64,000 nucleotides of DNA, taken from the IMG/VR virus record IMGVR_UViG_3300037225_000856, positions 1 through 64,000 of that record; one strand, written 5' to 3'. This document shows, piece by piece, positions 14,739 to 24,467 of the stretch; positions within the stretch are counted from its first letter, which is position 1, and every line of letters starts with the position of its first letter. The notes beneath the pieces were generated by a model. That model was not told where the DNA came from, made no database searches, and was given only the letters and a program-made list of their open reading frames with translations. A program made the translations under genes and the position numbers. This stretch comes from a virus.

Positions 14739-15668
14739 ATGAAAAAATATATAATAATAACAACAATCAACAAACCAAGTGAAGCAATATTTAAATTTTG
14801 TGAAAAAAGAGATTGGTTTTTTATAATAGTGGGTGATTTAAAAACACCACATGAAGAATATTATAAACTTGAAAAACAATTTTCAAATGTTAAATATTTA
14901 ACGCCAGAATATCAAAAAAATGAATATAAAGAATTAAGTGAAGCCATTGGCTGGAATTGTTCTCAGCGCAGAAATATTGGATTTCTCGAAGCATATAATT
15001 TGGGTGCTGAAATTATTGCATCATCTGATGACGATAATATTCCATATGATTCGTGGGGAAATGAAATTTTTGTTAATCAAGAAATTGAAGTTGATTTATA
15101 TCATCCAAAGTTAGATGTTTTCGATCCTTTATCAATAACTAAAGATAATTACATTTGGCATAGAGGATTTCCAATTGAATATCTTCAAGAACGTCATATG
15201 GTTGAATATCGTGGTAAAACAAAAAGAAAGGTATTGGTTCAAGCAGATTTGTGGGATGGTGACCCAGATATTGATGCTCTTGCAAGACTATCATTTAAAC
15301 CAATTGTAAAATACTCTAATATTACTGCACCATATTGTTCGGACAGAATAGCACCGTTTAATTCACAAAATACTTTTTTGTCAAGAGAAGTAATTCCGTA
15401 TTATGCAGTATTTCCATACATTGGCAGAATGGACGATATTTGGGGTTCATATATATTACAACATTATTTTCCAAATTCAGTAATATATAATAAAGCATCG
15501 GTTTATCAAAAAAGAAATATCCAAGATTTGATAACTAATTTGGAAAATGAGATAATTGGTTACAGAAATACCTTGACGTTGATTAAAAATTTAAATAATT
15601 TTGAACAATTATTACCCGCAAAAACGTTAAAGTTTTATAATATTTATAAAAAACAATTTAAAATATGA
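14739..15668 (+). CDS. STELLO/DUF288-like (GT75/RGP-related) protein
   Basis: IITTIN, VGDLKTP, RRNIGFL, DDDN, RGFP, DPDIDA, FNSQNT, RMDDIW motifs. Confidence 0.75.
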   Translation: MKKYIIITTINKPSEAIFKFCEKRDWFFIIVGDLKTPHEEYYKLEKQFSNVKYLTPEYQKNEYKELSEAIGWNCSQRRNIGFLEAYNLGAEIIASSDDDNIPYDSWGNEIFVNQEIEVDLYHPKLDVFDPLSITKDNYIWHRGFPIEYLQERHMVEYRGKTKRKVLVQADLWDGDPDIDALARLSFKPIVKYSNITAPYCSDRIAPFNSQNTFLSREVIPYYAVFPYIGRMDDIWGSYILQHYFPNSVIYNKASVYQKRNIQDLITNLENEIIGYRNTLTLIKNLNNFEQLLPAKTLKFYNIYKKQFKI

Positions 15669-16705
15669 AAAGAATATTAATTTTAGGTGGCGGTGGCTTT
15701 ATCGGTGGTCATCTTGGAAAACGTTTAAAATCAGAAGGTAATTGGGTAAGAATTGTTGACATAAAAAATCACGAATACTTTTCTCACGAAGAAATTTCTG
15801 ATGAATTTATTCTTGGTGATCTTCGTGACCCAATGCTGGTTTCAAGAGTAATGTTTGCTCCGAAACAAAGTGTAAATGGTGACGAAAATGCATTTGATGA
15901 AGTATATCAACTTGCAGCAGACATGGGTGGTGCGGGATATATTTTTACTGGAGAACATGATGCTGATGTTATGCACAATTCGACATTAATTAACTTAAAC
16001 GTAGTACACGAAGCAGTTAAAAAAGGAGTAAAAAAACTTTTTTATTCTTCTTCGGCATGCATGTACCCAGCATATAATCAACTTACCCCAAATAATCCAA
16101 ATTGTGCAGAATCTTCAGCATATCCCGCAGCACCTGATAGTGAATATGGCTGGGAAAAACTATTTAGTGAAAGATTATATTTATCTTATCACAGAAACTA
16201 TGGTTTAAATGTGAGAATAGCAAGGTTTCACAACATATTTGGCACATTTGGTACTTGGCGTGGTGGTAAAGAGAAAGCACCTGCAGCAATGTGTAGAAAG
16301 GTTGCAGAACACACTAATGATCTGATCTCACATGAAATTGAAGTTTGGGGCGATGGTCAACAAACCCGTTCATTTCTATATGTTGATGAATGTCTTGAGG
16401 CTATTCAAAGATTAATGGCAAGTGATTGTATTGAACCACTTAATATTGGTTCAGAAGAAATGGTGAGCATTAATCAATTAGCTCAAATGACAATTGATAT
16501 TTCTGGTAAAAATCTTAAGATTAAAAATATTGCAGGACAGGTATTTATTGATAAATATACTTTTAAATGTCCTGAAGGAGTTCGTGGCAGAAATTCAGAT
16601 AATAAACTTTATCGTGAAAAAATTGGTTGGGAAGTAAGTCAACCATTAGAAGCAGGATTAGTAAAAACATATAATTGGATTAATAAACAAGTAAATGAAT
16701 TATAG
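15665..16705 (+). CDS. GDP-mannose 3,5-epimerase-like protein
   Basis: LAADMGGAG, FYSSSACMYP, AYPAAP, YGWEK, RFHNIFG, EKAPAAMCRK, WGDGQQTRSF, GVRGRNSDN closely follow the GME family. Confidence 0.88.
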   Translation: MKRILILGGGGFIGGHLGKRLKSEGNWVRIVDIKNHEYFSHEEISDEFILGDLRDPMLVSRVMFAPKQSVNGDENAFDEVYQLAADMGGAGYIFTGEHDADVMHNSTLINLNVVHEAVKKGVKKLFYSSSACMYPAYNQLTPNNPNCAESSAYPAAPDSEYGWEKLFSERLYLSYHRNYGLNVRIARFHNIFGTFGTWRGGKEKAPAAMCRKVAEHTNDLISHEIEVWGDGQQTRSFLYVDECLEAIQRLMASDCIEPLNIGSEEMVSINQLAQMTIDISGKNLKIKNIAGQVFIDKYTFKCPEGVRGRNSDNKLYREKIGWEVSQPLEAGLVKTYNWINKQVNEL

Positions 16706-17285
16706 CGGTGCAATTGTTATACAGGGTCAATCTGATTATGTTAATGAACTTAAAAAAGCATGGTCAGGAAATTCATTAATATGGTCAACATGGATAGGTA
16801 ATGAAAGTAAATATAATAAAGAAGATATTGTTGTATTTAATGAAATGCCTTCAGTACGTGGTGTTGGAAATGTTATGTTACAACAGAAAACAACATTAAA
16901 TGGCATATTAAAGGCAAAAGAATTAAAATATGAAAGAGTGTTGAAATGGAGAAGTGATATGATTCCAACAAATACCGATGAATTTGTTAAATTATTTCTT
17001 TTAAATGCAATAAATATGTTTTTTTTTCATGACAGTGGAGATTATTATGTTGATTATATAATGGAAGGGGAAACCGATAAAATATACGATATGTGGAATT
17101 TTACTAATATTAATGTATGGTGTGCCGAAATTGCATTAACTAATAATATTAGGAAAAAACAATTAAATAAAAACATTGAATTTTTTGGTAAAAATTTAAA
17201 TAATGTGAATGATGTTTTGTGGTTAAAAAAACAAATTAAATTATCAATATATAAAAATGATATTTGTTATGTTTACAAACAATAA
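16695..17285 (+). CDS. WavE-like LPS/glycan synthesis protein
   Basis: AIVIQG, STW, NxxLQxxTTLNGI, KWRSD motifs. Confidence 0.65.
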   Translation: MNYSGAIVIQGQSDYVNELKKAWSGNSLIWSTWIGNESKYNKEDIVVFNEMPSVRGVGNVMLQQKTTLNGILKAKELKYERVLKWRSDMIPTNTDEFVKLFLLNAINMFFFHDSGDYYVDYIMEGETDKIYDMWNFTNINVWCAEIALTNNIRKKQLNKNIEFFGKNLNNVNDVLWLKKQIKLSIYKNDICYVYKQ

Positions 17286-18009
17286 AATAAATATTGTAAT
17301 GCCAATGGCTGGTCGTGGCGGAAGATTTAGTCAATTTAATCTACCAAAACCACTCATAAAAATTGATGACAAAGCAATGGTTTGGCATGCTATTAATAGT
17401 TTAAAACTTGACGGAAATTATATATATATTACAAGAAAGTATGATGACCATTCATTAAATATTGAATTAAATAATATATTATCTGAAGTAACACCTGATT
17501 GTGATATAATTCAAATTAATCATGTGACTGAAGGTCCTGCTTGTAGTGTATTATTAGCAAAAGAATTAATTAATAATAACAAACCATTAATTATTACAAA
17601 TTGTGATAGAATATCCTATTGGAATTCTCAAGATTTTTTGAATGCTATAAATCAAGAAGATGTTGATGGTTTGGTAGTAACATGGAATAAAATTGCAACT
17701 ACTGAAAGTTTTATTGAATTGGATGAAAATGGATATGGAATAAGATTGGTTGAGAAAGAAATTATAAGTGACCAACCATTAAACGGAATACATTATTGGA
17801 AAATGGGAAAATATTTTGTAGAATCGGCAGAAAAAATGATTTTAAAAAACATTAGAATAAAAAATGAATTTTATGTTTCCATGACATATAATCAAATGAT
17901 TAATGATGGATATAAAATTAAAACATATAAATTAAAACCAAATCAGCATTTTTCTGTCGGTGACCCAGAAGATTTAAAAAAATATTTACAATGGAAAAAC
18001 TCAAAATAA
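17257..18009 (+). CDS. Sugar-phosphate nucleotidyltransferase (BcbE-like)
   Basis: MPMAGRGGRF, PKPLI, TEGPACS, NCD, EK, NEFYV, GDPEDL motifs. Confidence 0.85.
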   Translation: MIFVMFTNNKINIVMPMAGRGGRFSQFNLPKPLIKIDDKAMVWHAINSLKLDGNYIYITRKYDDHSLNIELNNILSEVTPDCDIIQINHVTEGPACSVLLAKELINNNKPLIITNCDRISYWNSQDFLNAINQEDVDGLVVTWNKIATTESFIELDENGYGIRLVEKEIISDQPLNGIHYWKMGKYFVESAEKMILKNIRIKNEFYVSMTYNQMINDGYKIKTYKLKPNQHFSVGDPEDLKKYLQWKNSK

Positions 18010-18314
18010 GTGACATGAAGGGTGGATGGTTTGTTGGTGATTTTATGCCAACAGCATTTCATACAGAAAAATTTGAAGTTGGTTATCATAAATATAAGAA
18101 AGGTCAGCAATGGGATAAACATTATCATATGTTAACAACTGAGATAAATTATGTTATAAGTGGTCAAATGAAAATACATGGAGAATTACTTGAAGTTGGT
18201 GATATTTTCATAATATATCCTAACGAAATTGTTGAACCTGAGTATTTAACTGATTGTGAACTTATCATATCCAGAGACGGTTCATTTAAAAATGATAAAT
18301 ATGTTGTAAAATAA
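17991..18314 (+). CDS. Cupin-domain protein
   Basis: GWFVGDF.P, HYH....E cupin motif, GDIFIIYP. Confidence 0.75.
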   Translation: MEKLKISDMKGGWFVGDFMPTAFHTEKFEVGYHKYKKGQQWDKHYHMLTTEINYVISGQMKIHGELLEVGDIFIIYPNEIVEPEYLTDCELIISRDGSFKNDKYVVK

Positions 18315-18319
18315 AAGAC

Positions 18320-19495
18320 ATGATATTTAAAGAGGAAATAAATAAAAATGACTATATTATAGTTAAATATTTTTTAGAATCAAAGACATCGTTAAGAACT
18401 GCAGCTTGGAGTTTAGCTATTGGTCAAAGTGTTGGTAATCCAAATGTTAGAAATAAGTGGGAAACAGATGAATTGTTTGAAAAATATTCAGCATTGGTAA
18501 TTGCTGATGAAGCCGAATTAAAATTACTTAAAAGAGGTATTGTAAATATAGCTTTTCCAAAAGTAAATATCGATTGGAATACAGATGGTATTTCACAATT
18601 ACTATGTTTTATAATGGGTGGTCAATTAGACATTGATGATATAATTAAATGTCATGTTTTGGATATTGAATTTCCTGACTCAATTGTTAATAATTTTAAG
18701 AAACCTAAGTTTGGTTTAACTGGATTTAGAGAATATACAAACACATATAATAAACCATTTTTTGGTGGTATTGTTAAGCCAAAGACTGGTATATCAAGTG
18801 GAGTATTATTGGATATGGTAAAGGAAATGGTTGATGGTGGTGTAAATTTTATAAAAGAAGATGAAATATTGGGAAATCCAGAATTCTGTAAAATAACTGA
18901 TAGAGTACCGAAAATAATGAATTATTTAATAGGAAAAAATGTGATATATTCCGTATGTATTAATTCAGACCCAATGTATGTGTTGAACAGGGTTAAAACC
19001 GTTTATTGTCTTGGTGGCAATTCAGTTCATATTAATTTTTGGTCTGGAATGGGTGTTTATAAATCTGTTAGAGATTTAGATTTACCAATTTTTATTCATT
19101 TTCAGAAAAGTGGTGATAAAATTTTAACAAGTAAAACACACGATTTTCATATTGATTGGTACGTGATATGTAAATTAGCATCATACATGGGCGTTGATTC
19201 AATTCATGCTGGCATGATTGGTGGTTATATGGACAATGATGAAGTTGAATTATTAAAAGCATTAAAGGTGTTGACCGAGAATAATGTTACCCCTGCACTT
19301 AGTTGTGGAATGCATCCGGGTTTGATTGAGTACATTAATAATAAAATTGGGGTAGATTATATGGCAAATGTTGGTGGTGCGTTACACGGGCATCCTAATG
19401 GTACATATGCTGGTTGTTTGGCAATGAGACAAGCAATTGATAAAACATATCGGAAAGAATATTATCTGGCAATTAAAACATGGGGAAAAAAATAA
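18320..19495 (+). CDS. RuBisCO-like protein (form IV)
   Basis: PKFG..G.R, KPKTG, GGVNFIKEDE, IHAG, SCGMH, GGALHGHP.G..AG..A.RQA. Several carboxylase residues are substituted. Confidence 0.92.
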   Translation: MIFKEEINKNDYIIVKYFLESKTSLRTAAWSLAIGQSVGNPNVRNKWETDELFEKYSALVIADEAELKLLKRGIVNIAFPKVNIDWNTDGISQLLCFIMGGQLDIDDIIKCHVLDIEFPDSIVNNFKKPKFGLTGFREYTNTYNKPFFGGIVKPKTGISSGVLLDMVKEMVDGGVNFIKEDEILGNPEFCKITDRVPKIMNYLIGKNVIYSVCINSDPMYVLNRVKTVYCLGGNSVHINFWSGMGVYKSVRDLDLPIFIHFQKSGDKILTSKTHDFHIDWYVICKLASYMGVDSIHAGMIGGYMDNDEVELLKALKVLTENNVTPALSCGMHPGLIEYINNKIGVDYMANVGGALHGHPNGTYAGCLAMRQAIDKTYRKEYYLAIKTWGKK

Positions 19496-20221
19496 ATGGG
19501 AAATCTCGATTACATTAACAATGCATTTACTCCTGATGAATTAAAACATGGTTGTTTTAGAAATTGGGATGGTGTGTGTAATATATTAACATATTCATTT
19601 ATTACACATATGTCAAAGTATCTTAAATTCGATAACATTAAAGTTATTCTGGATATCGGTTCAAGGGATGCATGTCAAACATTAGAGTTTAACAGATGGT
19701 TTCCAAATACAAAGATTTATGCGTTTGAACCAGTACCATCTAATATTGCATGGTGTAGAAACACAACAAAAAACATTCCTAATATTACAATTATACCCAA
19801 AGCAGTTAGTTCATTTAATGGAAAATCTAAATTTTATGAAGTAATAAATGGTAACGTGGGAGCAAGTTCATTTTTATTAACCAGTGGTCACCCACGTTCA
19901 AGTGGATGGGCACAAAAAGAAATTGAAATTGAGTGTGTTAGATTGGAAGATTGGTTAAAAGAAAATAATATAAATAAAGTTGATTTAATTTGGGCAGATG
20001 TTCAAGGTGTTGAAAAACTTGTTTTTGAAGGCATGGGACATTTTTTGAATGATGTAGATGGTATCGCCACAGAGGTTGAACTTCAGGCATTATATAAAAA
20101 TGCCACAATGAAATCAGAATTGGATATATTATTGAATAAGAATTTTCACTTACTTGAATCGAAACCAGAACCACAGCAAACAGAAGCAGATGTAATTTAT
20201 GTAAATAAAAAATATTTATAA
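19496..20221 (+). CDS. FkbM family methyltransferase
   Basis: LDIGS, YAFEP, GASS, WADVQGVE motifs. Confidence 0.88.
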   Translation: MGNLDYINNAFTPDELKHGCFRNWDGVCNILTYSFITHMSKYLKFDNIKVILDIGSRDACQTLEFNRWFPNTKIYAFEPVPSNIAWCRNTTKNIPNITIIPKAVSSFNGKSKFYEVINGNVGASSFLLTSGHPRSSGWAQKEIEIECVRLEDWLKENNINKVDLIWADVQGVEKLVFEGMGHFLNDVDGIATEVELQALYKNATMKSELDILLNKNFHLLESKPEPQQTEADVIYVNKKYL

Positions 20222-20673
20222 TGAAATTTATTGCACATAGAGGTAACATTAATGGTGTTGAAATTGAAAAAGAAAATACGTTAGAATATATTGTTTCAGC
20301 AATAGAAGGGGGTTTTGATGTGGAAATTGATATGTGGTATAAAGATAATTCATTTTATTTGGGACACGATAATTTTGAGTATAAAATTTCATTAGCTTTT
20401 TTACAGCAATTTTCAGTGTTTCTTTGGTGTCATGCTAAAGATATTTATACTTTAAATGAATTATTAAAATATTTTGAAATTAATTGTTTTTTTCATCAAA
20501 ATGATAATTGTACATTAACATCACATAAATATATTTGGACGTATCCTGAAAAATCGTTGACAGAACGTTCAATATTACTTAAATTTGCAAAAGACGAGAA
20601 CTTTACAATACCGAAGAATATTTTTGGTATATGTAGCGATAACGTTGAATACTATAAAAACAAATTAATATGA
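20221..20673 (+). CDS. Minimal glycerophosphodiester phosphodiesterase-like protein
   Basis: IAHRG, ENT, VEID, LGHD, GICSD motifs. Confidence 0.75.
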   Translation: MKFIAHRGNINGVEIEKENTLEYIVSAIEGGFDVEIDMWYKDNSFYLGHDNFEYKISLAFLQQFSVFLWCHAKDIYTLNELLKYFEINCFFHQNDNCTLTSHKYIWTYPEKSLTERSILLKFAKDENFTIPKNIFGICSDNVEYYKNKLI

Positions 20674-21686
20674 ATTTACTTATTGCATATGGAACTCGTC
20701 CTGAGTTTGTCAAAACTAAACCAATAATTAATGAATTGAATAAAAATAATTTTTTATTTAAAACATTATTTACTGGTCAACATGTGGATTTATTAAAAGA
20801 ATGTCCCGCAAATTATGTAACCAGCATCATTAATTCGGGTATTCAAGAGAATAGATTAGACGAAATCGTTCAATCAATAATGGGCGTGTTTACGGGAGCA
20901 AAAATGTTTTATGATAATATAACTCATGTAATGGTTCAGGGAGATACCACATCAGCAATGGCAATTGCATTATCTGCATATCATCATGGTATAAAAGTTA
21001 TTCATCTGGAAGCAGGACTTAGAACATATGATAAAAAAAATCCATATCCTGAAGAAGTAAACAGGAGAATTATTTCAGAAATTGCTGATATTCATTTATG
21101 TCCGACAGAATTAGCAAAACAAAATTTATTGAATGAAAGAATTGATGATGATATTTATGTGGTTGGCAACACAGTGATCGATAATTTATTATCTTATAAA
21201 GATAAATGTGAATATACTAATAAGATTTTAGTTACTCTACATAGGCGTGAGAATCATCACTGGATGGACAAATGGTTCATTGAATTAGATAATTTGGCTA
21301 AATTATATCCAGAATATGAATTTATTCTACCAATTCATCCTAATCCAAATGTACAAAAATGGAAGCATTTATTAAAGAATGTTGTGATTATTGACCCACT
21401 TCCATATGAGAAAATGCTTGATTTACTGGTTCAATGCAGACTTGTAATTACTGATAGTGGTGGACTTCAAGAAGAATCTTGCTTTTTCAATAAAAAATGT
21501 TTAACTTGCCGAATTGTAACAGAACGTCCAGAAGCAATTGGATTAAGCACTTTTATGGTTGAAAGACCAAATATGTTAATTGGGGCATTTATACATCACA
21601 TTAATAATTATAAAATAAATGTAGAATGTCCATTTGGTGATGGACATGCTGCAGAAAAAATAATGAAGATATTAAAAAATTTATAA
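20670..21686 (+). CDS. wecB: UDP-N-acetylglucosamine 2-epimerase (non-hydrolysing)
   Basis: GTRPE, TGQH, QGDT, HLEAGLRT, PEEVNR, HRREN, TDSGGLQEE, TERPE, PFGDG motifs. Confidence 0.95.
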   Translation: MNLLIAYGTRPEFVKTKPIINELNKNNFLFKTLFTGQHVDLLKECPANYVTSIINSGIQENRLDEIVQSIMGVFTGAKMFYDNITHVMVQGDTTSAMAIALSAYHHGIKVIHLEAGLRTYDKKNPYPEEVNRRIISEIADIHLCPTELAKQNLLNERIDDDIYVVGNTVIDNLLSYKDKCEYTNKILVTLHRRENHHWMDKWFIELDNLAKLYPEYEFILPIHPNPNVQKWKHLLKNVVIIDPLPYEKMLDLLVQCRLVITDSGGLQEESCFFNKKCLTCRIVTERPEAIGLSTFMVERPNMLIGAFIHHINNYKINVECPFGDGHAAEKIMKILKNL

Positions 21687-22468
21687 TGAAAAAAGTATTA
21701 GTAATTGGTGACGGTTGCAAAGATGTGTTTCAATATGGAAAGTGTGAAAGGTTAAGTCCTGAAGCACCAGTACCTATATTTAAACCAACAAAAGCAAATA
21801 ATAATGGTGGCATGGCAGTGAATGTTTATAATAATCTTAAAGCATTAGGTGTTGAATGCGATATTTTAACCGAAAGCGGTATTACAAAAACCCGTTATGT
21901 TGATGAAATCAGTAATCAAATGCTACTCCGAGTTGATGAAAATGATATGATTTTTACGAGTCCAAGAATGTATGATAAAATCATGAATTTTGATTATAGT
22001 GCATATGATGCAGTAGTTATATCTGATTATGATAAAGGTTTATTAAGTGAAAAAATGATTAAACGTATTGCAATTAGCAATCCATTGACGTTCATGGATA
22101 CCAAGAAGAATATTAGCAATTGGGCAACATTTATAAAATTCATTAAAATAAATAAAAAAGAGTTTGATCAAAATGAAGGTTATTTAACACTTCATTTTCC
22201 AAATGACGTTATTGTGACATTAGGTGAAGCTGGTGCGATGCGTTATTATAATGATAATGGCGCATGTAGAACTGAGATGTATCCAAATGTTAATGAACAT
22301 CCTGTACGTGATCTTACAGGTGCAGGTGATACTTTTTTTGCAGGACTTGTTGCGAAATTCATAGAAAATAACGATATTTGTGATGCAATTATATTTGCAA
22401 ACAAATGTGCTGCTTGGGCAGTAACGCAAAAAGGTGTGGCAGTGGTTGATAGATATAAAATTAAATAA
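21686..22468 (+). CDS. Heptose-7-phosphate kinase (HldA/RfaE kinase domain, PfkB family)
   Basis: RLSPEAPVP, KTRY, LLRVD, SDYDKG, DLTGAGDTF motifs. Confidence 0.88.
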   Translation: MKKVLVIGDGCKDVFQYGKCERLSPEAPVPIFKPTKANNNGGMAVNVYNNLKALGVECDILTESGITKTRYVDEISNQMLLRVDENDMIFTSPRMYDKIMNFDYSAYDAVVISDYDKGLLSEKMIKRIAISNPLTFMDTKKNISNWATFIKFIKINKKEFDQNEGYLTLHFPNDVIVTLGEAGAMRYYNDNGACRTEMYPNVNEHPVRDLTGAGDTFFAGLVAKFIENNDICDAIIFANKCAAWAVTQKGVAVVDRYKIK

Positions 22469-22469
22469 T

Positions 22470-22847
22470 ATGATAGAAATTACACATGTAACAAATAAAA
22501 AAATACACGTACCGAAAGCATGGGGCGAAGAAGTTATTATTCACAATGGAGAAGATTATTGTGGAAAATTATTGCGTTTTAGAAAAGGTGGTATGTTCAG
22601 CCTACATTTTCATTCTTTAAAGACGGAATCATTTTATGTTAATAAAGGTATTTTTAACTTAACCACAATTGATACAAGAACTGCTGCAAGACAGCATATT
22701 AGTCTTGTAGAAGGAGATATTATTCATATTGAACGCAATACTCCACATCAACTGGAAGCACTTGAAGAAAGTGAAATATTTGAAGTAAGCACACCACATA
22801 ATGATAATGATAGTTATAGAATAGAGAAAGGAGATAGTCAATGTTAA
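22470..22847 (+). CDS. Cupin sugar-phosphate isomerase-like protein
   Basis: PKAWG.E, SLHFH..K.E, PHQL, EVSTP...DSYR resemble the type II mannose-6-phosphate isomerase cupin domain. Confidence 0.75.
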   Translation: MIEITHVTNKKIHVPKAWGEEVIIHNGEDYCGKLLRFRKGGMFSLHFHSLKTESFYVNKGIFNLTTIDTRTAARQHISLVEGDIIHIERNTPHQLEALEESEIFEVSTPHNDNDSYRIEKGDSQC

Positions 22848-23131
22848 TTTACGTAGATATTGATAACACAATTTGTACAACTATTGATAGTGATTATAAG
22901 AATTCCAAACCGATTCAAGAAAATATTGATAAAATAAATCGACTTTATAATGAAGGCAATACGATTGTTTATTGGACTGCTCGTGGCAGAGTTACACGTA
23001 AAAATTGGTCAATTTTAACTCGTAAACAACTGAGAGATTGGGGATGTTTGCATCATAAACTAGATATGAGTAGCAAACCTGCATATGATAGAATTATCGA
23101 TGATAAAGCGTTTAAAATTAATGAATTATGA
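22841..23131 (+). CDS. Small HAD-family phosphatase
   Basis: VDIDNTIC, WTARG, KP, IDDKA (HAD motifs I-IV). Confidence 0.8.
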   Translation: MLIYVDIDNTICTTIDSDYKNSKPIQENIDKINRLYNEGNTIVYWTARGRVTRKNWSILTRKQLRDWGCLHHKLDMSSKPAYDRIIDDKAFKINEL

Positions 23132-23562
23132 ATATTTGGACTAATGGTTGTTTTGACATCTTACATACAGGGCATATTGAGTTATTGAATTATGCAAAGA
23201 TGTTTAATCCAGATTTTGAAATATTTTATACACCACTTATTGTTCACAACACTTTATTTGTTGGACTTGATAGTGATGAAAGAGTTAAAAATTTAAAAGG
23301 AGATAAACGACCAATAAATGACATTGACACACGTTTAACAATAATGCGTAATTTGAGAATGGTTGATGAAGTATTTATATTTAATACAGATGATGAACTG
23401 CGACAATTAGTTAAAGAATTGAGTATTGATTATATGATTGTTGGTAATCAATATCAAGATAAAGAAGTAATTGGACATGAGAATTCGAAATATGGTGTAA
23501 TCTATTATAAAGTAGACGAGAGGTCAACAACAAATATTATTGAAAAAATTAAAAATTCATGA
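23128..23562 (+). CDS. Heptose-1-phosphate nucleotidyltransferase (HldC/RfaE2-like)
   Basis: TNGCFDILHTGH, GLDSD, LKGDKRPIN, STTNII motifs. Confidence 0.88.
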   Translation: MNIWTNGCFDILHTGHIELLNYAKMFNPDFEIFYTPLIVHNTLFVGLDSDERVKNLKGDKRPINDIDTRLTIMRNLRMVDEVFIFNTDDELRQLVKELSIDYMIVGNQYQDKEVIGHENSKYGVIYYKVDERSTTNIIEKIKNS

Positions 23563-24467
23563 TAGTAGTAACAGGTGGTGAAGGATTTATTGGCAAAAAT
23601 CTTGTTAAAGAGTTGGAAAGACAGGGCAATATTGGTGTTGTAAGTCTTGATACAAAAACCGAAAATCTTGGTTTTATTTATTCTTGGCTTTTAACCTATG
23701 CTGATCAAATTGATTGTATATTTCACCTTGGAGCAATTACCGATACTACTGAAATGAATAAGAGTTTATTCGATGAATATAATGTTGAATCTTCAATTTT
23801 TATCTGGAATTTATGTTCAGATTGGGGTATACCATTGATTTATGCAAGTTCTGCAGCAACATATGGTGATGGTAAAGAAGGATTTGATGATGAGAAGGAT
23901 ATTATTAATCTTAAACCATTAAATCCATATGGCTGGTCAAAACAACAATTTGATATATGGGCAGAAATTCAAGAGCAACAACCACCAAACTGGTATGGTC
24001 TGAAGTTTTTCAATGTATACGGGTATGGAGAAGCACAGAAAGGTAAAATGGCATCAGTTGCTTTTCACATGTTCAATCAGATTGACGAATCAAAAAAAGT
24101 TAAATTATTCAAATCACATCGTCCAGATTATGAAAACGGTGAACAAAAAAGAGATTTCATTTATATTGATGATATAGTTGATGTTTGTTTATTTTTATAC
24201 GATAAAAAACCACTTTCAGGTATTTATAATGTAGGTACTGGAAAAGCACGTACATTTAATGATCTTGGCAGCGCAGTTTTTAAAAGTCTTGATATTCCGC
24301 TTTTAATTGATTATATTGACACTCCGATTTTAATCAGAGATAAATATCAATATTTTACTGAAGCTAAGATTAATAAGTTGAGGATGACTGGTTATAAAAA
24401 ACCTTTTAGTGAGTTAGAAGATGGTATTTCGAAATATATAAATAAATTAAATGATAAAACTTGCTAA
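23559..24467 (+). CDS. hldD: ADP-L-glycero-D-manno-heptose 6-epimerase
   Basis: FHLGAITDTTE, YASSAATYG, PLNPYGWSK, FFNVYG, KGKMASV, RDFIYIDD, YQYFTEA motifs. Confidence 0.92.
   Translation: MIVVTGGEGFIGKNLVKELERQGNIGVVSLDTKTENLGFIYSWLLTYADQIDCIFHLGAITDTTEMNKSLFDEYNVESSIFIWNLCSDWGIPLIYASSAATYGDGKEGFDDEKDIINLKPLNPYGWSKQQFDIWAEIQEQQPPNWYGLKFFNVYGYGEAQKGKMASVAFHMFNQIDESKKVKLFKSHRPDYENGEQKRDFIYIDDIVDVCLFLYDKKPLSGIYNVGTGKARTFNDLGSAVFKSLDIPLLIDYIDTPILIRDKYQYFTEAKINKLRMTGYKKPFSELEDGISKYINKLNDKTC

Follow-up and report, generated by a model that had tools for sequence, protein, structure and literature searches.

A RuBisCO-like protein coupled to a nucleotidyltransferase in the glycan locus of a jumbo phage: a putative front end for glycan precursor activation

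Introduction

The system considered here is a compact gene cassette built around a RuBisCO-like protein (RLP), situated at positions 16695-20673 of a 64,000-nucleotide stretch of viral DNA (the window, in what follows), which corresponds to the first 64 kb of the 112,403-bp linear IMG/VR virus record IMGVR_UViG_3300037225_000856. To our knowledge, the RLPs characterised so far all act in salvage or catabolism. The family to which the RLP of the window belongs is paired with a nucleotidyltransferase (NTase) almost universally, in viruses, bacteria and archaea alike, and its surroundings suggest a part in the making of glycan precursors. A first, sequence-only reading had attributed the DNA to a phage, and both the IMG/VR record and the virion genes bear this out. 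CheckV gives a completeness of 37% for the 112,403-bp record, from which a full genome of about 300 kb can be deduced; the G+C content of the window is ~29%, nearly all of its genes lie on the + strand, and large virion and tail-fibre-like proteins (phrog_6002, 23837, 4636) are encoded downstream of the cassette, together with a DUF3987/PriCT primase. The source virus is an uncultured jumbo tailed phage.

Phage RLPs of unassigned function have been reported before, as the sequence-only reading noted. Jaffe et al. (2018) described divergent “form IV-like” RLPs on large, myovirus-type IMG/VR phage contigs, which group with Beckwithbacteria, conserve the catalytic residues in part and have no known function (bioRxiv 10.1101/386292, PMC6389311); new RuBisCO branches had also been noted in the 2007 Global Ocean Sampling (GOS) paper. 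The report of Jaffe et al. concerns existence and phylogeny, and is silent on the cassette of NTase, cupin and miniature GDPD-like protein, on its fusions, on the cellular spread of the family (SAR11, Legionella, DPANN) and on the exchangeable pentose-phosphate front ends presented below. Literature searches combining RLPs with NTases or polysaccharides, with cupins or phages, and with SAR11 returned nothing beyond these two sources; neither the cassette nor its fusions nor any exchangeable front end appears in the literature searched, the clade itself being already published.

The gene cassette and its flanks

The run of six open reading frames (ORFs) described in the sequence-only reading was recovered as such (16695-17285, 17257-18009, 17991-18314, 18320-19495, 19496-20221 and 20221-20673, each of them encoded by the + strand), with neighbouring ORFs overlapping by 1-29 nt or standing 0-5 nt apart; the tight coupling claimed for them was confirmed. 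All six genes share one orientation and are translationally coupled; a scan of the + strand within 16695-20673 revealed no terminator-like site, and a scan for sigma-70 promoters returned 96 sites against 94.6 expected. The identities proposed for the six products (WavE-like, nucleotidyltransferase, cupin, RLP, FkbM and GDPD-like) were upheld by profile or fold matches. The RLP (18320-19495, +, 391 aa) belongs to the RuBisCO large-subunit superfamily, with PF00016 at 2.7e-31 (109.4 bits, cut-off 30.1) and PF02788 at 1.8e-4 (22.2 against 20.7); no match was obtained for it in PHROG. The NTase (17257-18009, +) belongs to the phrog_3980 family (2.6e-58), and has weak matches to NTP_transf_3 (6e-5) and rmlA_long (2.5e-7), the best PDB match being 4evw (6.7e-5); its fold family is clear from these profiles, while its substrate class is not fixed by the models.

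Between both genes lies that of a 107-aa single-domain cupin (17991-18314, +; phrog_24762 6.5e-35, with a weak Cupin_2 match), in which the metal motif H44, (H46), E51 is conserved in the alignment, plus a C-terminal DK. Its profile matched in the PDB the cupin domain of a quercetin dioxygenase (6e-6) and 7zvm, a small cupin named “mannose-6-phosphate isomerase” (6.6e-5). A complex prediction for RLP and cupin scored 0.00 and was made without controls, hence it speaks neither for nor against binding. The last ORF (20221-20673, +; phrog_34507 2.6e-23) encodes a 150-aa miniature GDPD-like phosphodiesterase (mini-GDPD), well short of the ~240 aa of a full-length GDPD barrel and with no Pfam match even at E up to 1. 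Its invariant residues H6, R7, E35, D37, H49 and D50 correspond to the HR / ExD / HD catalytic motifs, a profile made from the short homologues only reached the GDPD structure 7e0v at 3.3e-5 across those motifs, and longer DPANN homologues reach PF03009 (1.2e-21).

The first ORF (16695-17285, +) encodes a 196-aa putative glycosyltransferase (GT) of GT-A fold, WavE-like (p196 hereafter). Pfam gave no match for it; its AlphaFold model (pLDDT 94.2) led by Foldseek to GT6 GT-A transferases (8.5e-6, TM ~0.5), and WavE is found among its Atlas neighbours. In some other loci, p196 gives way to a second GT-A family, DUF7796-like, whose predicted fold is of the same GT-A type; the shared fold suggests that a GT-A-like transferase is a usual cassette member. 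The FkbM-family S-adenosylmethionine (SAM)-dependent methyltransferase (19496-20221, +) is over the cut-offs of TIGR01444 (7.3e-23, 81.6 bits against 37.7) and PF05050 (1.9e-16, 61.1 against 22.7). It keeps its position in the closest relatives (loci L095-L097) and is found in 26/80 viral loci, and is thus a variable tailoring accessory outside the core.

The cassette is flanked by genes for an Fcl/GalE-like protein of the short-chain dehydrogenase/reductase (SDR) epimerase/dehydratase family (15665-16705, +; PF01370 5.7e-38), which matches the GDP-fucose synthase model weakly and under its cut-off, and for a WecB-type non-hydrolysing UDP-GlcNAc 2-epimerase (20670-21686, +; TIGR00236 9.4e-77, over cut-off). 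Both occupy the same places in L095-L097, WecB being kept as a neighbour only in close relatives. Further upstream, a 309-aa protein (14739-15668) without Pfam or PHROG match aligns by its residues 67-278 with the PDB “transglycosylase” chains 7yua and 7xpr (1e-15). A heptose-type module follows immediately downstream (21686-24467), with a PfkB/RfaE-domain-I-like kinase (TIGR02198 3.9e-37, under cut-off), another small cupin (22434-22847) with weak similarity to that of the cassette (5.8e-5), small ORFs and an SDR. The RLP cassette itself contains no mutase, and might make use of the kinase and a small HAD protein of this module as well.

The active site of the RLP

The residues of the RLP were mapped through HMMER alignments to 2oej (Geobacillus MtnW) and 8dht (form III RuBisCO). 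The residues which the sequence-only reading had taken as retained are so: KPK corresponds to K153/K155 (K175/K177 in RuBisCO numbering), KEDE to K179/D181/E182 (K201/D203/E204), H327 to H296, S379 to S328 and the GG loop to G352/G353; G381, G403 and G404 of RuBisCO numbering are likewise retained. The replacements N123>Q102, H294>Q262, R295>K263 and K334>Y303 were also found as claimed. With respect to E60, the loss of the glutamate stands, but not the glutamine said to replace it, since G35 aligns there and Q36 lies one residue further on. Additional replacements are T65 to N40, W66 to P41 and H298 to D266. Among 128 distinct homologues (35-91% identical), K153, K155, K179, D181, E182, Q262, Y303, S328, C329 and G330 are conserved in 128/128, and E60, T65, N123, H294 and K334 are replaced in essentially all of them; the residues now standing at these places and at R295 (G35/Q36, N40, Q102, Q262, Y303 and K263) are themselves essentially invariant. 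The RLP site is thus predicted to be functional and family-specific, with the machinery for enolisation and Mg binding and without the residues for CO2 addition and C-C cleavage.

A genuine carboxylase/oxygenase, carried as an auxiliary metabolic gene in the service of carbon fixation or of the breakdown of nucleotides, would be consistent with the retained KPK and KEDE and with type III RuBisCO being the best NCBIfam match by E-value (1.2e-47). However, the score of 162.8 bits is far under the 497-bit cut-off of that model, the five replacements just mentioned include K334, the family branches outside forms I-III (see below), and phosphoribulokinase, the RuBisCO small subunit, AMP phosphorylase and ribose-1,5-bisphosphate isomerase were not found nearby; this possibility is hardly credible. 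The other curated models are equally far from being satisfied: OiaX NF042437 gave 123 bits against 700, and the MtnW models TIGR03332 and NF007095 gave 127 against 514 and 147 against 409. The general base of MtnW (Lys98, at the N123 position) corresponds to Gln102 in the RLP, a position occupied by Q in 119 of the 128 homologues, by H in 8 and by N in one. An MtnW-type enolase, one of the outcomes that would have spoken against the sequence-only reading, is contradicted by this substitution of the base and by 127-147 bits against equivalog cut-offs of 409-514. The identities of carboxylase, MtnW enolase and OiaX decarboxylase were all rejected on residues, scores and context.

In seven loci (L002:6270-6605 and six others) an antisense ORF of 94-129 aa lies within the RLP gene; it is most likely a by-product of the conservation of the RLP sequence and not a gene.

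Phylogeny and distribution of the family

A quick maximum-likelihood tree of 55 rows was built, its references being drawn from form I, from form II, from form III (five sequences over the equivalog cut-off), from OiaX and from further RLPs of Alphaproteobacteria and haloarchaea. The RLP family forms a clade (100% SH-aLRT) with a long stem, sister (98% SH-aLRT) to the OiaX-type form IV clade and outside forms I-III. In this sense, the phylogeny suggested in the sequence-only reading gave the family a clade of its own beside OiaX-type form IV, MtnW references not being among the tree rows. The clade takes in IMG/VR viral sequences and that of a Beckwithbacteria metagenome-assembled genome (L024), and this membership matches the “form IV-like” phage/Beckwithbacteria clade of Jaffe et al.; we infer that both are the same clade, the sequences of that paper standing outside our tree.

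At E <= 0.001, the RLP matches 396 IMG/VR stretches and 2,564 database proteins, the latter with other RuBisCO forms included and many of them on 100-370 kb contigs. The family is also encoded by 49 species-representative genomes. On the bacterial side, the carriers comprise, among others, a Pelagibacter with a complete chromosome, numerous single-cell genomes of SAR11, Azospirillum oleiclasticum, Beckwithbacteria, Saccharibacteria and three Legionella type strains (L. nautarum, L. drozanskii and L. maceachernii), and the archaeal ones include Woese-, Nano- and Micrarchaeota. On the other hand, tblastn of the RLP against 50,697 GenBank phage records gave no match, that is, no cultured phage carrier there.

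Conserved neighbourhood and gene fusions

The association suggested in the sequence-only reading between the RLP, the NTase, the cupin and the GDPD-like protein proved to be widespread. In the IMG/VR loci examined, the NTase family stands beside the RLP in 13/13 and the cupin in 10/13; in 80 further IMG/VR loci the NTase is present in 79 (73 within 1.5 kb), the mini-GDPD in 73 and the cupin in 69, other genes near the RLP being DUF7796-like (40), SDR (29) and FkbM (26). Among genomes, the NTase adjoins the RLP in 44/47 species-representative loci, including Pelagibacter, Legionella, A. oleiclasticum, DPANN and CPR, and the combined set of the 13 viral loci and the genome loci gives an NTase in 57/60 with an intact RLP, a mini-GDPD in 34 and a cupin in 25. 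In the closest relatives (70-79% identity), the gene order is exactly that of the window, i.e., SDR, p196, NTase, cupin, RLP, FkbM, mini-GDPD, WecB. Besides adjacency, the cassette members are found fused to each other. Two proteins of 813 and 817 aa (P0147 and P0148) join RLP, NTase and cupin in a single chain; only three RLP proteins longer than 685 aa were found, the remaining one (P0149) carrying an extra ~330 aa without Pfam domain. The NTase is furthermore fused to the cupin in 16 proteins, to a HAD in 12 and to the GDPD in one, and one GDPD-DUF7796-like fusion was also found. The conserved link to a nucleotidyltransferase, whose absence would have counted against the sequence-only reading, is near-universal among the homologues, reaching up to the triple fusions and always in glycan-type surroundings. 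In the window and its relatives, these consist of glycosyltransferases, SDRs, WecB and methyltransferases around the cassette; viral loci may add a phosphomannomutase (PMM)-like HAD, an HddA-like GHMP (anomeric) kinase or an adenine phosphoribosyltransferase (Apt).

It could also be thought that the cassette provides an activated pentose for phage DNA hypermodification (e.g., arabinosyl-type glycosylation of bases) and not for a surface or virion glycan. Phages do glycosylate hydroxymethylated bases with nucleoside diphosphate (NDP)-sugars, and pentose-phosphate front ends would suit a pentose donor. Nonetheless, the cassette is also present in cells (Pelagibacter, Legionella, Azospirillum, DPANN) near LicD, Wzy-like and glycosyltransferase genes, and that of the window is embedded in an extended series of genes for GTs, SDRs and methyltransferases, i.e., a glycan locus, and not alongside genes of nucleotide metabolism, all of which makes this explanation very improbable.

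Several loci show particular arrangements. In L007:7094-9666 (also in L008, and partly in L010) the RLP is followed by an Apt, a PMM-like HAD-IIB and a twitch-domain radical-SAM protein, the Apt of this subclade being over two NCBIfam equivalog cut-offs; the arrangement hints at a link with adenine or SAM by-product chemistry in this viral subclade. More broadly, the RLP and the cupin might process a 5-substituted ribulose-1-phosphate derived from 5'-methylthioadenosine (MTA), 5'-deoxyadenosine or S-adenosylhomocysteine, after the pattern of MtnW/MtnX/MtnD or of the Rhodospirillum rubrum RLP with its cupin methylsulfurylase. Such by-products would arise from the methyltransferases and radical-SAM enzymes in which the locus abounds, methyltransferases being common neighbours; Geobacillus MtnW is the closest solved structure by sequence (9.9e-34); the set of RLP, HAD and cupin (plus class II aldolase) mirrors MtnW, MtnX, MtnD and MtnB; and Apt follows the RLP in L007, L008 and L010, accompanied in the first two by the twitch radical-SAM protein. 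Against this, the general-base Lys of MtnW is Gln in 119/128 members and the scores are far under the MtnW equivalog cut-offs, mtnA, mtnK, mtnP and mtnN were absent from every locus examined, the Apt and radical-SAM gene occur in just 3 of ~140 loci, and the search of the cupin profile against the PDB gave no methionine-salvage or methylsulfurylase cupin. The invariant NTase, GDPD and GT partners and the fusions would also be left unexplained, so that such a salvage role is improbable. The absence of salvage or catabolic genes near the cassette, on which the sequence-only reading had relied, was confirmed.

In four Legionellaceae loci (L054:5636-6487 of Legionella nautarum, L056, L057 and L060) a LicD-family phosphotransferase (PF04991 1e-42) is encoded divergently from the RLP-NTase pair, with a Wzy-like membrane protein close by in L. 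nautarum; neither a cupin nor a mini-GDPD was detected at these LicD-bearing loci. A jackhmmer search with this LicD found homologues solely in the same four loci, so that a phosphodiester linkage cannot be generalised from LicD to the whole family. Two paralogous NTases flank the RLP in the SAR11 loci L036-L042 (Pelagibacteraceae), and tandem NTase-NTase fusions of 522-524 aa occur in the cyanophages Bellamy (L065:8229-9803) and S-SM2 (L067:5001-6569); paired NTases may reflect two activation steps or two different nucleotides. The cassette is also present in seven IMG/VR records named GVMAG (L114, L120, L135, L138, L139, L142 and L143), typically in the order NTase-cupin fusion, mini-GDPD, RLP, their giant-virus status being the IMG/VR label.

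Exchangeable front ends in cyanophages

The NTase family is found in 20 of the 50,697 GenBank phage records, 19 of them from Synechococcus phages. These cultured cyanophages have no RLP, and still encode an NTase, a mini-GDPD and the GT-A-like (DUF7796-like) protein, to which Bellamy adds the cupin. In S-SKS1 (L064:6001-7428, SWZG_00042) the NTase is fused to RibB, the 3,4-dihydroxy-2-butanone 4-phosphate (DHBP) synthase (PF00926 5e-65), in Bellamy gp096 (L065:6004-7161) to RpiB (PF02502 4e-32), and in S-CAM9 and B23 to a beta-phosphoglucomutase (beta-PGM)-like HAD. The GenBank names of the first two are “3,4-dihydroxy-2-butanone 4-phosphate synthase” and “phosphatase”, respectively. An AraD-like class II aldolase is added in S-SM2 and Bellamy, with TAL-family genes near. 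RibB and RpiB both use ribulose/ribose-5-phosphate, and the presence of RibB, RpiB or HAD front ends on a chassis lacking the RLP suggests a pentulose/pentose-phosphate substrate. The simplest reading is that of one activation chassis fed by exchangeable pentose/pentulose-phosphate enzymes, the RLP being one of its front ends.

Proposed role of the cassette

Taken as a whole, the genomic evidence leads us to propose, with a probability of about 0.6, that the RLP would be the front-end enzyme of a modular cassette for glycan precursor activation, made up of NTase, cupin, mini-GDPD, GT-A-like protein and tailoring methyltransferases. An intact RLP which would not fix CO2, locked or fused to NTase, cupin and mini-GDPD, probably prepares an unusual sugar phosphate, its most likely destination being a surface glycan. 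The route would start from the pentose-phosphate pool of the host, with a pentulose phosphate of the ribulose-5-phosphate or ribulose-bisphosphate type. The RLP dimer would form an enediolate, as in the first partial reaction of RuBisCO, and its re-protonation at another site, involving the invariant Q262, Y303 and C329, would result in isomerisation or epimerisation. The cupin would carry out a second isomerisation. Where required, the phosphate would be moved either by a HAD mutase or by a kinase acting together with a phosphatase (these enzymes being fused or adjacent in relatives); in the window, the PfkB kinase and the small HAD next door may play this part. The NTase would then produce the NDP-activated unit, to be transferred by the GT-A-like protein and methylated by FkbM. 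From the interpretation put forward in the sequence-only reading, the non-MtnW character, the NTase link and the glycan setting held, and the branching chemistry found no specific support.

Several points weigh against the proposed front-end role. The NTase is under the curated cut-offs for sugar-1-phosphate NTases of the RmlA/GalU/GlmU type (NTP_transf_3 23.7 against 27, rmlA_long 29.9 against 320), and the cassette of the window has no mutase or phosphatase gene of its own. The tree was built without MtnW, DeepYkr (R. rubrum) and Photo (Chlorobaculum) references. The pentulose substrate is inferred from the neighbours and not from the RLP itself, and RibB occurs together with the RLP in L161 and L169, so that the “replacement” of one front end by another is not strict. 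The product of RibB has no anomeric carbon, and both the RibB fusion and the LicD pairing in Legionella fit a cytidine diphosphate (CDP)-alcohol/phosphodiester route better than a classical NDP-sugar one.

This last point opens an alternative of teichoic-acid-like logic, in which the NTase, similar to TarI, IspD or the fructose-6-phosphate cytidylyltransferase of Campylobacter, would act on a linear ketol or polyol phosphate supplied by the RLP, activating it at its terminal phosphate; the unit would then be joined to a glycan through a phosphodiester made, trimmed or edited by the GDPD-fold protein. The NTase of S-SKS1 is fused to RibB, and for the product of the latter, 3,4-dihydroxy-2-butanone 4-phosphate, activation is possible only at the terminal phosphate. 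In the four Legionellaceae loci, LicD (PF04991 1e-42) and the RLP-NTase pair are transcribed away from each other, several NTases of the family have weak IspD matches, and the GDPD-fold enzyme, with its catalytic motif intact, is present in 73/80 viral loci and in one NTase fusion. A precedent is CDP-6-fructose (PMC10918830). However, beta-PGM-like and PMM-like HAD mutases and an HddA-like anomeric kinase, hallmarks of sugar-1-phosphates, are often partners; p196 and the DUF7796-like protein share the GT-A fold with NDP-sugar glycosyltransferases; and LicD is seen at the Legionellaceae loci only. Mutases, kinase and GT-A transferases thus point to a classical NDP-sugar route. The fusion with RibB, the ubiquity of a GDPD-fold protein and the pairing with LicD point to a CDP-alcohol/phosphodiester route, which we consider possible, with odds of roughly one in four.

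Going one step beyond the front-end role, we tentatively suggest, as a proposition which is rather doubtful as a whole, that the RLP clade might catalyse a new reaction of the superfamily, namely an enediolate rearrangement of a pentulose (bis)phosphate through Gln262, Tyr303 and Cys329. Its product could be an undescribed nucleotide-activated sugar or ketol, possibly phosphodiester-linked, on the surfaces or virions of hundreds of phages, SAR11, Legionella, CPR and DPANN, and the RuBisCO fold might thereby gain a first anabolic role, in the building of glycans.

Significance

If the proposed role is true, the RuBisCO fold would have a biosynthetic, glycan-directed branch, abundant by match counts, and the most studied enzyme fold of carbon metabolism would have a wider catalytic range. 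The carriers of the RLP include very numerous ocean organisms and viruses, such as SAR11 and large marine and freshwater phages, as well as Legionella, and its study could reveal an unknown sugar or ketol unit in surface glycans important for phage-host recognition. The modular picture, with one chassis and RLP, RibB, RpiB or HAD front ends, makes the function directly testable, as there are culturable carriers both of the chassis (the cyanophages S-SKS1, Bellamy, S-CAM9 and B23) and of its RLP version (Legionella nautarum, L. drozanskii, L. maceachernii and Azospirillum oleiclasticum). New in the present analysis are the recognition of RibB and RpiB as front ends, the pairing with LicD, the joining of RLP, NTase and cupin in one chain, and the assignment of the GT-A fold.

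Comparison with known systems

Among the RLPs of known structure, the 2,3-diketo-5-methylthiopentyl-1-phosphate enolase MtnW/YkrW (2oej/2oek from Geobacillus kaustophilus, 2zvi from Bacillus subtilis) can be aligned with the RLP over residues 13-376 (2oej, 9.9e-34). Both share the carbamylated Lys, the Mg ligands and the S-x-G and GG phosphate loops, and enolisation chemistry without CO2 is common to them, on the RLP side as a prediction. Nonetheless, the RLP family has KPK as in true RuBisCO where MtnW has K-G-M, and Gln102 in place of the Lys98 base, and mtn genes are absent from the window and the examined loci. The sister clade, formed by OiaX (3-oxo-isoapionate-4-phosphate decarboxylase) and alphaproteobacterial and haloarchaeal form IV RLPs, acts on sugar-derived phosphates without CO2 fixation, and its identity with the RLP is 27-29%. 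OiaX-type genes are situated in catabolic operons with four-carbon acid-sugar kinases, whereas the RLP is accompanied by NTase, GT and methyltransferase genes; no four-carbon acid-sugar kinase was found near the RLP, although the reference OiaX-type loci have one.

The RLP of Rhodospirillum rubrum, a 5-methylthioribulose-1-phosphate isomerase acting through an enediolate, is paired with a cupin methylsulfurylase in the MTA-isoprenoid shunt. The combination of an RLP with a small cupin is alike in both systems; unlike the R. rubrum system, the cassette has no MTA-pathway context, its partners being NTase, GDPD and GT. On the other hand, the logic of GDP-mannose and GDP/ADP-heptose synthesis (an isomerase of the phosphomannose isomerase cupin or SIS type, followed by PMM/HAD or by a kinase with a HAD phosphatase, and lastly by an NTase) finds a parallel in the relatives of the RLP cassette, which combine the same types of enzymes (cupin, PMM-/beta-PGM-like HAD, HddA-like kinase and NTase), and the NTase-cupin fusions echo the bifunctional enzymes of GDP-mannose synthesis, in which an NTase is joined to a phosphomannose isomerase cupin. 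No cassette protein is over the cut-off of the curated models for the mannose or heptose pathways, and the cassette differs from both in having an RLP at its front and a GDPD-fold protein in the set.

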